IMG/VR virus record: IMGVR_UViG_3300014720_000003
Coordinates: 1-64,000 of that record
From: a virus
DNA: 64,000 nucleotides
Strand: one strand, 5' to 3'
Part shown: piece after piece, positions 53,314 through 59,300 of the stretch
Position numbering within the stretch: position 1 is the first letter of the stretch
Layout: each line of letters opens with the position of its first letter
Translations under genes and position numbers: made by a program
Notes under the pieces: model-generated
Databases searched by the model: none
Seen by the model: only the letters and a program-made list of their open reading frames with translations
Told to the model about the DNA's origin: nothing

Positions 53314-56300
53314 ATGGCTCAAGCTTTTAATCTAACAGCTCAGATCAATTTACAGGGGCCGTCAGCGGCTGCTATTAAGCCAATTGTGGCTGATATTAAA
53401 AGGCAGCTTGGTTCGGCTACTGTAGATGTTAAGATCAAAATACCACCCAAAGCAGCAGCATCCATAGATGTTGTTACTAAAAAATTGCAAGCAATGAATG
53501 GGGTGCTTTCAGAAGCACAACTTAATGCTAACAATCTTAGCTCAGCACTATCTTCATTATCTAGTAGTTTTCAAAATCTTAATTCTAATGCTAGTAAAAC
53601 TCAAAGTTCAGTAGCAAATACTGCTAGCAGTGTAAAAGCAACCTCTAACACTATTAAAGTTGCTAGCTCTAGAATGGAAGAGTTTGGTAAACAATCATCT
53701 TTAGCAGTAAAACGATTTGCTGCATTTAGTCTAGCTGCTGGACCAATATATGCACTTATTAATGCTGTTAATAGTGCGTTTAAAGCATTTATTAGTTTCG
53801 ATAAACAACTAGTAAAGCTTCAACAAGTTACTGGTCAGGGCGCTATCGGTATTAAAGATCTTGAAAAAACAATTACTAATTTATCTATCAATCTTGGTAT
53901 TAGTAGTGAGGGCTTGATCGAGGTCGCTAGTACTCTAGCTCAGGCAGGATTAACAGCTGATGACACAAGAATAGCCCTAGCTGCTCTTGCTAAAACAGAT
54001 TTGGCTCCTTCATTCGACGATATTACCGAAACCACAGAAGGCGCTATTGCTGCTATGAGACAGTTTGGTTTAGAGGCTAGTGATCTTGAGGCAGTATTGG
54101 GTAGTATTAATGCTGTTGCGGCTGCTTTTGCTGTGGAATCTAGAGATATTATTACTGCTATTCAGCGTACTGGTGGTGTTTTTGCTAGTGCTAGTAAAGG
54201 AGTTTCAGAAGGGGCGGATGCTCTTAATGAATTTATTGCTGTGTTTACCAGTGTTCGTGCTACTACTCGTGAAAGCGCTGAAACTATTGCTACTGGTTTG
54301 CGTACTATTTTTACTCGTATTCAACGAGGTAGTACTATTAAGCAACTCAAACAATTTGGTATAGAATTAACTGATTTAGAAGGTAAATTCGTTGGACCAT
54401 ACGAAGCTATTAAAAGATTAAGTGAAGGACTTAAAAGCTTAGATCCTAGAGATTTGAGATTTAGTCAAATAGTAGAAGAGCTTGGTGGTTTTCGACAGAT
54501 TGGTAAAGTTATTCCATTAATTCAGCAATTTGGAGAAGCTCAAAAAGCTTTGGGTGTTGCTCAAAGAGGTCAGGGTAGTTTAACAGAGGCTCAGATCAAA
54601 GCTCAACAAAGTTTAGCAAATCAATTAGCTAGAGTTAGAGAGCAATTTTTAGCTTTGATTAGAGATATTGGTCAAAGTAGCGTATTTCAAGGACTATTTA
54701 AAATAGTAACTTCATTGACTAGTGGTTTCATTAGTTTAGCTGGTGCATTCAAACCCATTCTACCAATTTTGGGTTTGATGGGCGTTGTTAAGGGTGCTAG
54801 TGCTTTGACCCAGTTTGCTAGTGGATTTTTTGGTGGTGTTAGTAAGGGTGGTGGCGCAAAACAAGTTGGTCAAAGCTATGGTGAAAGTATTAGCGGTGCT
54901 AAAGAAAAAGAAAGAACAGAAGCAACATCTAAAGCCGCTGATGCAATAAGATCAAATACAGATGCTATTAAAAGCTTAACTAGTGCTATAGAGAGTTTGG
55001 AATTCTCTATACTAGACATTTATACTGCTCCACCAACCACTAAAAATAGTGGAGGTAAAATATTGGCATTTGCTCGTGGTGGTGTGGTTCCTGGCCAGGG
55101 TAATAGAGATACCGTACCCGCTATGCTTCAACCAGGAGAATTTGTTATACGCAAAAAAGCAGTAGAAACTATTGGTGCCAATAGACTACATAAAATGAAT
55201 AAATACGCTAAAGGAGGACCAGTTAAATTAAAAGAATTAGCAAGAGAAGATAGTTCTATAGAATCAGGATATAATAATAAGATACAATCAAATGATCAAG
55301 TCAGTGCTTCTATCAATAGAAAACAATTTGATTTTGATGCTAATCAAACCTCACCCATTAACTGGAAAACTCTAGCTAAAAGAATTGAAGAAAGATATCA
55401 AGGTGGTGAAAGTTATTTTAAAGCTCAAGGACACGCATTTGAAGAAAGTATAGTTAATCTATTAGGTAGAGAAGCTAAAAGAACAGCTGATATAGCAAAT
55501 TATGGCGCTGACTATCCTATAGATATTATTAGTGGTAATAAAGTTGCAGAAGTAAAATTTACAAAAAAAATTCATGATGATAATACCTATTTAAGTAAAT
55601 TAGTTAGACATCATATTCAACAACAATCTTTAAGTAAATATCCATTTACATCAAAATTTGATCCGGATGTTGGTATTGGTTCTATAGATGTTTTTGAAAT
55701 GGCATCCAATGCTAAGGATCAATTTCAAAAATGGTATAATACAACATGGTCACAAAAGAAAAACATTGGTGGCTTAATTCAAAAATTTGCAGAGGGTTCT
55801 CCTGGTGGAATTAGGTTACCTAGTGGTAAAGGTCGTGGTAGAAAAGGTAAGCTAGGACGTAGAGATAGATTTATTTCTCCAACTGAAGGAGGGCTTCCAG
55901 GAATAGAAAAATATCTAGATTGGGCAAAACAAATATATGCTGAATATGATGCTGATCCATCTTTAGTTAAAGCATCATATATGGGTGTTAGCATGCCACC
56001 AGAAATAGCTTTAGCAGATTATTTATTAGCACAATATGCTTTAGAAACAGGTGGAGCAGGACTGAGGGTTGGCAAAGAGTTTGTTAGGGTTCCAGCAGAT
56101 AAAATTACCGACGAACTTAAAAAAGATTTGATTCCAGATCCAACAGATCCTACTCAAATGGGTTTTTATAAAGATAAAATTGCTAGATTTCTACTCAAAG
56201 AGAAAAAAACTAAGTCATCACAACAATCTACTACCAGAGGATTAAAAAAAACAGAAGGAGCACTAACATTTAGTGCTGCTGGATTACAAAGAGGTCCTAG

Positions 56301-59300
56301 GGCGCCAGCTGGACAAGCTGCCCTAAAATTAGCTGAATATGAGCAAGACCCAGAATATCGTAAAGAAATGGGCTTAGATGCTGCGAAAATACCATTTTTA
56401 CAGCAATTTGAAAAAGCAGCAAAAACTGAACAATTCCTAAGCCCTAAAGCACTTCTTGAGAAATTTCCACAAGCAAAATCTCAATTAGAACAACTACAAT
56501 CATCAATACAAACAGAACTATCCAGAACAACAGACGCAAAAATACAAAAAAGTTTAACTGATCAACTAAGAAAAGTTACAACGGCATTAAGTGATTTTGA
56601 TAATTATATTGGTGGAGCATTACCTAAAAATGCTGGTAGAGCTTCTCATTTTGCCTGGGCAATGAGACAAGCCGTCCCAGGCTCTGCTGAATTTGCCAAT
56701 GGAGGATTAGTACAAAAATTTGTGGACGGAGGAGAACCCGAGCCTATTAGCACACCGCGATCTATAACAGAAATTATTAAGCTTGTTCAAGAGTTGGGTA
56801 CATCTTCAAGAATCAAGTCTCTCATAGGTACTGGAAAAATAATTCAAGAAGCTAGTGCTGTGGGAGTCAGAGGTGTCCTACCCAAACGTATTCTAGATTT
56901 AGATTTTCTCAAATCTGATAAAGTAACACCATTTATACCAACAATTGATAAACTATTAGATCTAGCATTAATAGAAGATGCAAAAGTTAAGAGAGAGGAC
57001 GATTTCAGACTCTCTCCGGAAGAAATAGCATCAGCCAGACCAGTTGGTATAGTTGGATTTAGGTCAAATCTTAAAGATCTGATGCCGTATTATAGAAAAC
57101 GTAAAGGTAAAAATCCGATTAGGGTTTATACAGGAATTTTACAACCAACCGATTATGCTGATGTTGAGCAACTGTGGAGAGAATATTATGAATCACAAAT
57201 GAAAGCAGCAGGAAATATAGCTTCTAGAAGAGGACAATCAGCAATGTCTATTTCTGAAGTAGACCGTAAAACCTTTGGCATTGCTAATGCTCAAGGATAT
57301 GATGTTGAAATGATATTAGCAGCGCTTGGATCCACCGGAGGTAAACGATCATCACAAGATGCTATAGACTTTGCTTCTGGATTAAGCCCATTAGCTGCTG
57401 ATGTTTTTGGAATTCCTGCTGGAATACCCACTCAAGCTAAACTCACTGTTACTAGTGATAGTATAACAGATGCTATTGATGGTATTGTTAAAACTTTCTT
57501 TTTTGGTGGTAAAGTTAATCCTCTAGCTAAAAAATATGGATTAAGTCAAAAAGAATTCGAGCAAGTACAAAAGTTAGCTAGCGCAATGGGATTAGATCAA
57601 GCTGGACTAGAGCAACAAGTTCAAAGAGCCGCTGCTCGTAAACAAAAAGGTAAGGATATTAAATTTGGATTATTAGATACCCAAGCAGAATTAATGGCAT
57701 CAGATACCATACGAACACAAGAGGAGGCTGCTCTACAAGAATTCATGAAAGCTCAAGGATTTGCTGTGGGAGGAGCGGTAAAACTCTATCATGGTACAAC
57801 TACAGGAACAAATGATTCTATTCTTAAAAGTTTTCAAGAGCAGGGCGGCATGTCAGGTATTGCACAAGGCTATGGTCAAGGTGCTGGCCTATTTTTGTAC
57901 ACAGATAGAGACAGAGCAGTTAAACAAGCACAAATGAGAGTATCTGGAGGTGGATTCGGTACTGTTACTAGCGGAGACACCTCTGGTCGTCCAATGGTAG
58001 TTACTTTTTCAGAAATATTAGATCCAAAAAACTTTGATCTAGACTATGAATTAGAAAAGGGTTTAATTATAAAATGGTTAACTAGTAATTATGATCAGAT
58101 TAAGGATAAACTTAATCCCACCAAAGATTTAGGTGGTATAGTCGATATTATAACTGAAAATAGATCTCAAGGTATAATGTCATCTGGTATAGTTACTAAA
58201 ACCGCATCACAAGGACTCAAAGAAATATATGCCGGTTCCCCATCTAATATTACAGAAGGAGCTATTATTAGTCAGATAATCAGTAGGCTTCGAACCGCAG
58301 ACCCAGAATTAGTAGATGCTTTTGAAAGCAAATTATTTGAAAAGCCAATGGGTCTGGTATTAAAATATATTGGTGAGTCAGCTTTACGACCAATAAGTTT
58401 AGAGCCGTTTGCCAAAGGGGGCTCGGCAAAAGATACCGTACCAGCACTCCTAACCCCAGGTGAGTTTGTTATTAACAAACAAGCTGCTCAAAAAATTGGA
58501 TACTCTAAATTAAATAAGATGAATAAGGCGGATAAAATACAAGGATTTAATAAGGGTGGTGCTGTTGGTAATATTCGTAGATTTTTTGAAGGTGGAAAAG
58601 CAGAAAAAGATGTGGAAAGAGCGCAGGGAGAAGTAATAAAAGATGTTAGTCACGCTCTGGAAACTGTGTCTGAAATCATCTCATCACTACCAGCACATAT
58701 ACAGCAAGCTTTGAAGAATACTCAAATAGAAAGTTTAAGACCAGGACAAAGATTATCTTTACAAGGAGGAAGTGGTCCAGAATTTAGAGAAGGCCAGAGA
58801 GGAGTAGCTGTCACCTCAGAGGCTGGTAGTACTGCTATAGGACTAAAAATAGGGAAGGGAATATTGTCTTCTATCAAGGGTCTTTTTGGTATTAAAACAA
58901 AGGATGCTGCTACTACGGAAACTGTGGCTCATGAAACTGGACATTTAGCTGATGCCGCCGTTTCTAGTCAAGCCGGAATGAATACTTTTGCTAGTGAAAC
59001 CAAAGGTACATTTCAATTTGATGTTGTAGAAAAAGTTAAACCAGTAATGGAAAAAGCTTTTTTAAATGCTGGTTATAGCGCAGAATGGATAGCTAAATAT
59101 TTAGCTAGTAATAAAGAATTGTTTGCAGAGTTTTTTGCTAAAGCTAGTCCAGCAGTAAGAAATATTTTAACGTCCACTATTGATAGTGAACAAGGCATGA
59201 AAATGCTAGCAGAAGAGTTAGCAAGAACAGGATCAACATATGCTGGATTACAAGCATCAGATATTGTTCCACAAGTGGGTCCTGGAACACCAATACCACA

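Follow-up and report, generated by a model that had tools for sequence, protein, structure and literature searches.

A phage tape measure protein with joint-fenced, exchangeable modules of predicted enzyme folds as candidate tail cargo

Introduction

We analysed a window of 64,000 nucleotides (nt), i.e., the first 64 kb of the IMG/VR virus record IMGVR_UViG_3300014720_000003 (138,480 bp in total, rated complete, with direct terminal repeats), with a focus on its gene for a tape measure protein (TMP) of 3,949 residues. Behind an N-terminal part that resembles the TMP of phage lambda, this protein holds six mutually unrelated modules (A to F), which are fenced by short [FY]xxGG motifs (joints in the following) and seem to be exchanged among related phages. 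Two of the modules are predicted to fold as an ADP-ribosyltransferase (ART) and as a zincin metallopeptidase, respectively. We consider it fairly probable, at roughly 0.6, that the TMP carries swappable enzyme modules which the tail brings into the host.

TMPs set the tail length, form the DNA entry channel and, in some phages, carry one wall-cutting domain. A preliminary description of the window, made from the sequence alone, had already proposed a polyprotein in which enzyme-like domains are separated by such motifs. Coordinates of all features are collected in Table 1.

Results

Gene identity and joints

An open frame of 3,949 codons without a break makes up the gene and leaves the window at position 64000. 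PF10145 (PhageMin_Tail) matches residues 185-390 with 86.8 bits (cut-off 33.2; E 2e-24), and the TP901-type core model TIGR01760 matches residues 145-469 with 94.4 bits (cut-off 28.8; E 6.6e-27). In addition, seven tape-measure families of PHROG have matches to the N-terminal third. On the same strand, the large terminase gene precedes the TMP gene by 11.6 kb, and four open reading frames (ORFs) of 568-780 residues come after the latter. By these matches, the frame is a genuine TP901-type TMP of an uncultured 138-kb phage. Among the loci L001-L008, the identity of the N-terminal core ranges from 39 to 98%. The C-terminal part contains Gly-rich blocks (up to 20% Gly, with 19-22 Gxxx[GAS] motifs per 200 residues) and hydrophobic stretches at residues 2379-2404 and 3483-3518.

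Translation combined with a motif scan places the joints where the preliminary description had put them, with the exception of NIGG. This motif is present ten residues upstream of FAEGS, yet it starts at about nt 55756 instead of 55762, i.e., some two codons earlier. Within residues 561-1990, we count 9 [FY]xxGG motifs compared to a mean of 0.93 in shuffled sequences (standard deviation 0.98, maximum 5; 2000 shuffles). Joints have the form [FY]xxGG, often extended to GG..[IV]Q[KR]F.xGG, and the same peptide closes the R module described below. The same flanks (e.g., GG.IQKFAxGG) surround the homologues of A, C and D, and the FFFGG joint is kept as F[AF].GG in 4/7 aligned homologues of C and as SGG in a fifth. 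On the DNA level, repeats at joints are 73-76% identical over 26-33 nt, as for the joint upstream of B and positions 56697-56729 (76% over 33 nt). The TMP gene thus offers no long recombination substrates in its interior.

Cutting at the joints results in six intervals, the modules A to F. The assumption of the preliminary description that each interval is a separate domain is borne out by hhalign, which reports a probability of at most 0.6% in all 15 module pairs, i.e., no relationship. This includes A and C, which are not detectably alike (0.2%). Pfam scans of each segment (E up to 10) as well as a phmmer search of residues 586-1985 against the PDB sequences resulted in chance-level rows only, and NCBIfam has no match on A, B, C, E or F.

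The predicted structures discussed below agree with the joints as domain borders. The first and last strands of the E model end within 1-2 residues of the flanking joints, while the confident part of the F model begins about 7 residues past FFEGG. In the joint model of the second R module and F (R2+F), the joints sit in low-confidence linker beside folded domains. The preliminary description had furthermore called the stretch between the core and the C-terminal part non-helical. Since helices are numerous in both models, E as well as F, this only holds in the sense that the stretch is not of the coiled or Gly-zipper type.

R modules

Two copies of a segment of about 50 residues, here called R, stand before A and before F, respectively. 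We built a profile from the alignment of 12 R modules of the window phage and four relatives. A search with this R profile (hmmsearch against the PDB sequences) finds lambda gpH at residues 732-786 (E 6.2e-7) and matches gp16 of mycobacteriophage Douge, a TMP of 1,699 residues, twice (E 7.2e-10). The pairwise BLASTP comparison of an R module with gpH gives an E-value of 4e-5. In gpH itself, FATGG is found at 733, GEFV at 754 and YATGG at 778, right after a hydrophobic Gly-rich stretch. Thus, the preliminary description was right to point to a similar segment in gpH, a protein that is cleaved nearby according to the sections on gpH in PMC12617516. Since R1 of the window TMP is likewise preceded by a hydrophobic segment (residues 457-501) and a Gly-rich stretch, residues 1-635 resemble a complete lambda-style unit.

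A tblastn search with R1 covers 258 places in 172 phage records, among them records of Gordonia, Mycobacterium, Rhodococcus, Synechococcus and Pelagibacter phages; among the 40 matches listed, most carry TMP annotations. Judged by these sequence comparisons, the R module goes far back among tape measure proteins and is equivalent to the gpH segment.

In the monomer model, R2 reaches a predicted local distance difference test score (pLDDT) of 34-56, and a complex prediction of three R2 copies (12-row alignment, run without controls) scores 0.01 compared to a mark of 0.42. Solved structures do not model the region either: there, the built parts are residues 818-849 for gpH (PMC12617516) and 1658-1699 for Douge (PMC13033339).

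Module E

An exhaustive search with modules A to E found 153 proteins at E <=1e-3, among which dozens of free-standing proteins of about 230-260 residues match E alone. The AlphaFold2 prediction for E, based on an alignment with 80 homologues, has a pLDDT of 89.2 and a predicted template modelling score of 0.85. When compared with known structures by VIA, KptA/Tpt1 comes first (Z 8.1, root mean square deviation (rmsd) 3.1, 83 residues aligned) and PARP16 reaches Z 6.7. By title, 37 of the best 50 rows belong to the ART superfamily (PARP domains, ART toxins, Tpt1, DarT, Arr).

The following residues are kept in the family of 81 sequences: His in 80/81, an aromatic residue in 81/81 (65 Tyr, 16 Phe), Asp90 in 81/81 and Glu92 in 81/81. 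The window copy has Phe at the Tyr position. Hence the ART domain listed in the preliminary description reappears here in the form of a predicted structure: E is modelled as an ART fold with an H-[Y/F]-E-like residue set and represents an uncharacterised family.

Other searches were less informative. Foldseek has no match for the E model at E 1e-3 or better. The same holds for a fold search in BFVD, whose rows are mostly unnamed phage proteins; three of them (ranks 17, 29 and 45, all weaker than E 1e-3) are labelled PolyVal ART. The Pfam model ART-PolyVal (PF18760) finds nothing in the genome even at E up to 10, and a Pfam scan of module E by itself is empty as well, while 3/81 family members match ART-PolyVal weakly (E 0.019 or worse). 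A search with the E-family profile against the PDB sequences gave nothing significant. The top Foldseek row, chain B of the cyanophage A4 pre-ejectosome, was rejected as too weak (E 8.5e-3; VIA Z 4.7, rmsd 9.1).

Some observations on the wider family are noted here. Residues 1421-1603 of PDB 9k3a chain B, i.e., the A4 podophage ejection protein, may be an ART-like domain, and the A4 pre-ejectosome paper has no mention of ADP-ribosylation. The gene context of a free-standing E protein, a metagenome stretch of 9.7 kb, shows a sub-threshold HNH match and a DUF2201 protein, otherwise nothing named, and a cluster look-up of free-standing E proteins returned no functional names; an IMG/VR scan for such contexts yielded a fragment only. 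An E-like module is also contained in a giant metagenome ORF (L022:3-10658) of at least 3,551 residues with an open 5' end; over the part of the ORF that the contig covers, it is without Pfam match, the TMP core included. Finally, a cluster of proteins around P0068 (1,036 residues), found on 23 contigs of up to 172 kb, has an E-like domain at 389-593 and thereby provides a non-TMP setting for this ART-fold family; one source names the protein 'DTW domain-containing protein YfiP'.

Module F and the Pro-rich linker

Module F contains the motif HETGH at residues 1873-1877 (nt 58930-58944) and a conserved Glu at residue 1935. In its model, computed with 9 homologues, the mean pLDDT of ten-residue blocks is 71-96 apart from one loop with 47. 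The best VIA matches are the catalytic domain of anthrax lethal factor (LF; Z 8.3, 146 residues aligned) and the Pro-Pro endopeptidases (PPEPs) PPEP-2 (Z 6.8) and PPEP-3 (Z 6.0), and 39 of the best 50 rows are metallopeptidases by title. All of the top 6 Foldseek rows are LF (E 5.4e-3 to 2e-2), none of which reaches 1e-3.

The putative ligands H175, E176, H179 and E237 (R2+F numbering; E237 is the Glu 58 residues after the second His) are invariant in 10/10 sequences, as is an Asp three residues past HExxH. The metallopeptidase of the preliminary description is consequently recovered as a zincin fold with HExxH, and for both modules whose folding was examined, E and F, the prediction is a confident globular fold. 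In the model, F is an LF/PPEP-like zincin; given the middling Z-scores, membership of the M34 family itself is not established.

No free-standing homologue of F was found among proteins of 123-392 residues. Among proteins of 393-2000 residues there are two, one of which is a fragment of the window TMP gene. Atlas was uninformative for F; its sole PolyVal trace is a neighbour cluster at rank 23, with LPD5 on 11% of it. In one relative (L005:11531-12250), a shorter and divergent module with HEIGH followed by E.FAD.FA lies between two R modules, i.e., the zincin slot has more than one type of occupant.

A Pro-rich stretch follows F in 5/8 F-bearing TMPs that we looked at. In the window TMP, a 33-nt tandem duplication (59322-59387, 94% identical) forms the repeated GGGGPPPLPPR unit of this linker.

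Modules A to D

In module A, the motif E..PxD..ExK is kept: E75, P100, D102 and E111 (module numbering) are invariant in 7/7 sequences, and the Lys is Arg in one. Its nearest named protein-language-model neighbours in Atlas are Tox-REase-3/7/5/9 at 0.86-0.89, which is below the mark of 0.9. A profile search of the A alignment against the PDB sequences found nothing significant. We regard a restriction-endonuclease-fold nuclease as a good lead for A.

In module C, the motifs GY.(L/I)E..LA, (I/V)D(F/Y) and PT(E/Q).K are kept in 8 sequences. The conserved C-terminal half shows a D..[EQ]xK-like pattern, in which the window copy has Q where three relatives have E. That is, of the two intervals that had been described as nuclease-like, A keeps a PD-ExK motif while C only offers a pattern reminiscent of it. 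Residues 1-145 and about 120-297 of module B match different giant TMPs, and B is therefore probably composed of two sub-modules. The small module D has three homologues, which are covered in Table 1.

Module turnover among related giant TMPs

We collected about 40 proteins of 2,400-6,400 residues in which the N-terminal core and R modules are common, A to F occur in differing combinations and orders, and much of the remaining sequence is unrelated. The segment, cluster and R-core statistics in the following refer to 39 such giants (the window TMP and 38 others, whose modules are mostly different), gathered by similarity to modules A to E. In 37/39, the N-terminal segment falls into the same cluster.

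Where an alignment reached the end of a module, we counted whether a joint of the form [FYW]xxG[GS] was found within the expected few residues. This holds for 53/85 module ends, compared to 7.0 expected for random positions in the same proteins. Ends without a joint are mostly the C-terminal ends of C and F as well as both ends of E.

Cutting the giants at [FYW]xxGG yields 236 segments of 60-700 residues that group, at strict clustering thresholds, into 121 clusters, 94 of them singletons. At the same strict thresholds, proteins with N-terminal cores of 70-80% identity share a mean of 1.1 clusters (Jaccard index 0.14 over 30 pairs). Two loci illustrate the range. L001 is 98% identical over residues 1-3583 and has the same cargo; here, the comparison of synonymous and non-synonymous changes yields 0-3 synonymous ones per module, i.e., too few differences. 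L002, with a core identity of 65%, has little of the cargo in common with the window TMP: only about 80 residues of C, next to the two R modules and the beginning of F.

R cores occur 113 times in the 39 proteins (up to 7 per protein), with a joint downstream of 102 and upstream of 68. Apart from sub-threshold rows, PF10145 is the only Pfam match on the whole TMPs of seven relatives. These comparisons support a picture in which the core and the joints persist, whereas modules come, go and change places at the joints. The alignment of related TMPs suggested by the preliminary description has thus been carried out, with variable cargo and stable core and joints as its outcome.

The longest giants (P0006-P0013, P0029, P0030, P0039 and P0040; 5,000-6,400 residues) contain the R core 4-7 times, often about 1,000-1,350 residues apart. 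This recurrence extends through the C-terminal ruler, and the proteins look like tandem lambda-like TMP units.

Further features of the window

Within the region 41796-53278, ten ORFs each were scanned with PHROG and Pfam, using slightly different sets around the terminase and TMP genes. PHROG matched the large terminase, with the other nine ORFs being without match, and Pfam gave no significant match. The lineage thus has very divergent head and tail proteins. The sheath family Phage_sheath_1 has no match over the genome, from which the tail is probably non-contractile.

Close to the left end of the window, a full-length transfer-messenger RNA (Rfam 125.8 bits; ARAGORN tag GNNQLALAA) lies beside a transfer RNA (tRNA) gene for Ile(tat). 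The region 22000-36000 has a GC content of 0.41-0.51 compared to about 0.33-0.36 elsewhere. Genes for seven tRNAs (Lys, Ser, Asn, Gln, Thr, Arg, Glu) lie there, and the ORFs on either strand are all short and overlapping.

Table 1. Positions of the TMP gene, its predicted parts and further features within the window (nt, strand) and the protein (residues).
Feature	Residues	Position	Strand	Basis and details
Tape measure protein gene	1-3949	53314..64000, on to genome position 65163	+	single open frame; PF10145 and PHROG TMP families
N-terminal TMP core	1-585	53314..55068	+	TP901-type core at 145-469; hydrophobic 457-501, then Gly-rich stretch
R module 1: FARGG, DTVPAMLQPGEFVI core, YAKGG	586-635	55069..55218	+	R profile 97 bits; FARGG at 586 (nt 55069), DTVPA from 599 (nt 55108), YAKGG at 631 (nt 55204)
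Module A, candidate PD-(D/E)xK (restriction-endonuclease-fold) nuclease	636-824	55219..55785	+	motif, language-model lead
Joint NIGGLIQKFAEGS(PG)	815-829	55756..55800	+	motif scan; FAEGS at 825 (nt 55786); A homologues finish in the same GG.IQKFAxGG joint
Module B	830-1126	55801..56691	+	no family match
Double joint FANGGLVQKFVDGG	1127-1140	56692..56733	+	motif scan, repeat comparison; FANGG at 1127 (nt 56692), FVDGG at 1136
Module C	1141-1394	56734..57495	+	conserved motifs in 8 sequences
Joint FFFGG	1395-1399	57496..57510	+	motif scan
Module D, small	1400-1482	57511..57759	+	3 homologues, each between [FW]xGG and FAxGG
Joint FAVGG	1483-1487	57760..57774	+	motif scan
Module E, predicted ADP-ribosyltransferase-fold domain	1488-1698	57775..58407	+	AlphaFold2, VIA, 81-sequence family
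R module 2 and double joint: FAKGG, DTVPALLTPGEFVI, FNKGG, FFEGG	1699-1761	58408..58596	+	R profile 81.5 bits; FAKGG at 1699 (nt 58408), DTVPA from 1707 (nt 58432), FNKGG at 1745 (nt 58546), FFEGG at 1757
Module F, predicted zincin metallopeptidase fold	1762-1985	58597..59268	+	model, VIA, Foldseek, motif
Pro/Gly/Ser-rich linker with 33-nt tandem unit	1986-2050	59269..59463	+	composition, repeats
C-terminal helical and Gly-zipper part		59464..64000, continuing to 65163	+	composition, hydropathy; partly conserved in relatives
Large terminase gene		39717..41747	+	PHROG
Transfer-messenger RNA		1292..1649	-	Rfam, ARAGORN
tRNA-Ile(tat)		1741..1815	-	

Discussion

Explanations for the modules

Our preferred explanation starts from residues 1-635 as a lambda-like unit, which comprises the TP901-type core, the hydrophobic segment, the Gly-rich stretch and the R module. 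Behind this unit lies a slot for the independently folding, mutually unrelated modules A to E, then the second R module with the zincin F and, past F, a Pro-rich linker that leads to a helical and Gly-zipper ruler of about 1,900 residues. The modules would travel in the virion together with the TMP, be released at infection into the host envelope or cytoplasm and act there as enzymes. The sections on TMPs in PMC12617516, PMC13033339 and PMC10038345 describe that these proteins fill the tail tube, exit ahead of the DNA and contribute to a trans-envelope channel. Since the TMPs of lambda and T5 fill the lumen and leave before the DNA, the virion should bring the modules along and release them into the host, and an ART-fold enzyme accompanied by nucleases would imply cytoplasmic targets. 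Our analysis shows the identity of the gene, its architecture, the predicted folds of E and F, the conserved motifs and the module turnover at joints; that the mature virion contains the modules and ejects them is inferred, as are their activity and targets. As a rough estimate, 3-6 compact copies of 1,400 residues would take up about 45-90 nm of a lumen 4 nm wide, which suggests that the cargo can fit in a tail of this size; within the lumen, it is probably not arranged as side-by-side folded domains.

Several points weigh against this explanation. The case for carried enzymes is built on sequence and predicted folds, and none of the modules is recognised by a sequence model from Pfam, NCBIfam or PDB. 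Predicted structures cover 2/6 modules (E and F), B, C and D are without assignment, and the nuclease call for A draws on a motif and a language-model lead. The Z-scores for the folds are middling (8.1 for E, 8.3 for F), with VIA itself warning that values of 7-8 are common, and the Tyr position of the E family is Phe in the window copy. As the giants were gathered via similarity to A to E, they are not an unbiased sample of the family. Of the 10 structural neighbour ORFs scanned, only the large terminase matched a family significantly, and the tail type is read solely from the absent Phage_sheath_1 match, which is a weak sign. Finally, ART and nuclease activities need cytoplasmic substrates, and the passage of TMP-borne domains through the inner membrane is not established.

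Among the other explanations, the idea that the TMP is a processed polyprotein would refine the preferred one rather than exclude it. Here, the joints or the Gly-rich stretch before each R module would be cleavage sites from which A to F are freed, with cuts either at tail maturation or past ejection; F may be the protease that acts on the joints or on the Pro-rich linker. We regard this as possible, though with the odds clearly against it. In its favour, cleavage within the Gly-rich region of lambda gpH yields gpH* (about residues 1-690/730) and gpHC, i.e., the cut falls at or just before the R-like segment beginning at 732, and T5 pb2 is cut after R1127 at tail maturation, which splits off a muralytic metallopeptidase part (sections on gpH and pb2 in PMC12617516 and PMC10038345, respectively). 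Furthermore, embedded LF-like zincins have been argued to separate the domains of polyvalent proteins (main text of PMC5512222). In the window TMP, the best structural matches of F are LF and the PPEPs, the joints lie in low-confidence linker adjoining folded domains, and F is followed by a Pro-rich linker, as is the case for most of the F-bearing TMPs counted above. PPEPs cut between prolines. Given the resemblance of F to them and the adjoining linker, self-cleavage at the linker would be an attractive idea by analogy. What speaks against the polyprotein is that the gpH sections of PMC12617516 name neither exact site nor protease of the lambda cut and that pb2 has no R profile match (best domain E 2.1, at an unrelated place), such that T5 gives no support for the R module or the joint motif. 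Moreover, an F-like module is found in few of the giants that share A to E, so that F cannot be a general protease.

A bolder version of this idea appears speculative to us, even more so than processing as such. According to it, the ruler would be a programmable, self-processing injection polyprotein. Past ejection, the LF/PPEP-like zincin would cut the Pro-rich linker, the [FY]xxGG joints or both, and would thereby free the ADP-ribosyltransferase, one or two nucleases and other effectors in the cytoplasm before phage genes are expressed. The joints would serve as recombination-safe seams at which related phages trade effectors against host defences, and the same joint would also mark the cut site of lambda gpH. 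A ruler with a changeable string of cytoplasm-type enzymes, be it processed or not, would amount to a second entry route for pre-made phage proteins beside polyvalent proteins and head-packaged ejection proteins, of which T4 Alt is an example. Such rulers would moreover give access to many uncharacterised effector domains (121 clusters in just 39 proteins), and the shared joint would be a testable candidate for the position of the gpH cut as well as a seam for the engineering of tail cargo.

Instead of entering the cytoplasm, the modules might act outside of it and help the tail to cross the wall. ART- and restriction-endonuclease-fold enzymes use cytoplasmic nicotinamide adenine dinucleotide (NAD) and nucleic acids, and no lysozyme, SLT, M23 or amidase family is found in the window TMP or in the 7 relatives scanned; i.e., Pfam scans of the window TMP reveal no recognisable wall hydrolase. 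F is a metallopeptidase by fold, which would fit such a role, and yet it is like the protein-cutting zincins of M34 type and unlike wall peptidases. Although the known TMP enzymes are wall hydrolases (the SLT domain of Gordonia phage Yeezy; the muralytic metallopeptidase of T5 pb2 in the pb2 sections of PMC10038345), we therefore deem an envelope-breaching toolkit improbable.

Still less probable is that the modules are inert filler, i.e., decayed domains kept as bulk, length spacers or assembly aids in a very long tail. The tail of mycobacteriophage TM4 lengthens in proportion to its TMP, even across the embedded motif, and the absence of matching family models, the Phe in place of Tyr in E and the Q in place of the ExK Glu in C are all compatible with decay. 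Against this, the candidate catalytic residues are invariant (E: His 80/81 and Glu 81/81; F: 10/10; A: 7/7), E occurs as a family of free-standing genes as well, and the models of E and F are confident and compact. A mis-assembled frame, or separate genes read through, can practically be discounted: two fragments of 1,845 and 2,693 residues (P0002, P0003) reflect other contigs that break inside the gene and nothing more, while the 3,949 codons are uninterrupted, the independent contig L001 reproduces residues 1-3583 at 98% and about 40 further giants are built alike. This leaves tail-carried, swappable enzyme modules as the explanation we favour.

Comparison with known systems

Lambda gpH shares with the window TMP one R-type segment (FATGG..GEFV..YATGG, 733-782) behind a hydrophobic Gly-rich stretch. 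It differs in that this single segment lies near the C-terminus and no enzyme is embedded, whereas in the window TMP the R module closes the first 635 residues and is followed by six modules, including a second R before the last of them, and a second long ruler. T5 pb2 differs as well: it has a single C-terminal enzyme, no [FYW]xxGG and no R profile match. A likeness by eye between its cut site and the start of the R module was dropped on account of the profile result given above.

Mycobacteriophage TM4 and its relatives have TMPs with embedded wall hydrolases. In the TMP of Gordonia phage Yeezy (2,109 residues), the Pfam SLT domain at 1511-1601 is directly continued by YAQGG and an R module (1596-1645), one of three in this protein, while Douge gp16 has two R-like segments. 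An enzyme beside an R joint is thus already present in ordinary actinophage TMPs. That several TMPs contain a peptidoglycan hydrolase is also stated in the TMP sections of PMC12617516. The difference is that the actinophage TMPs hold one or two wall-directed domains, with no ART, restriction endonuclease or LF-like zincin reported.

Just these enzyme kinds are combined in polyvalent proteins, for which the main text of PMC5512222 describes ART, restriction-endonuclease-fold and LF-like zincin domains within one polypeptide and proposes injection together with the DNA. The predicted ART and zincin folds and the PD-ExK motif occur together in the window TMP, too. Here, however, the carrier is a tail ruler with TMP-specific joints; that main text has no mention of tape measure proteins, and the Pfam *-PolyVal and LPD models have no match on any segment of the window TMP at E up to 10.

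The effectors of contractile injection systems (Sle1 type) are alike in that a TMP-derived scaffold with exchangeable domains is loaded in the tail tube. They belong to bacterial systems of Actinobacteria and carry one C-terminal domain (PMC13277306), whereas the window protein is the phage's own ruler with many internal modules. Among published work that we found, these effectors come nearest. In the literature within reach, i.e., apart from subscription journals and supplements, we found no phage TMP with a chain of ART, nuclease and zincin modules. Both enzymes within TMPs and polyvalent proteins are already known; what is new here is the expansion of TMP-embedded enzymes to a multi-slot array of other, so far predicted, enzyme kinds.

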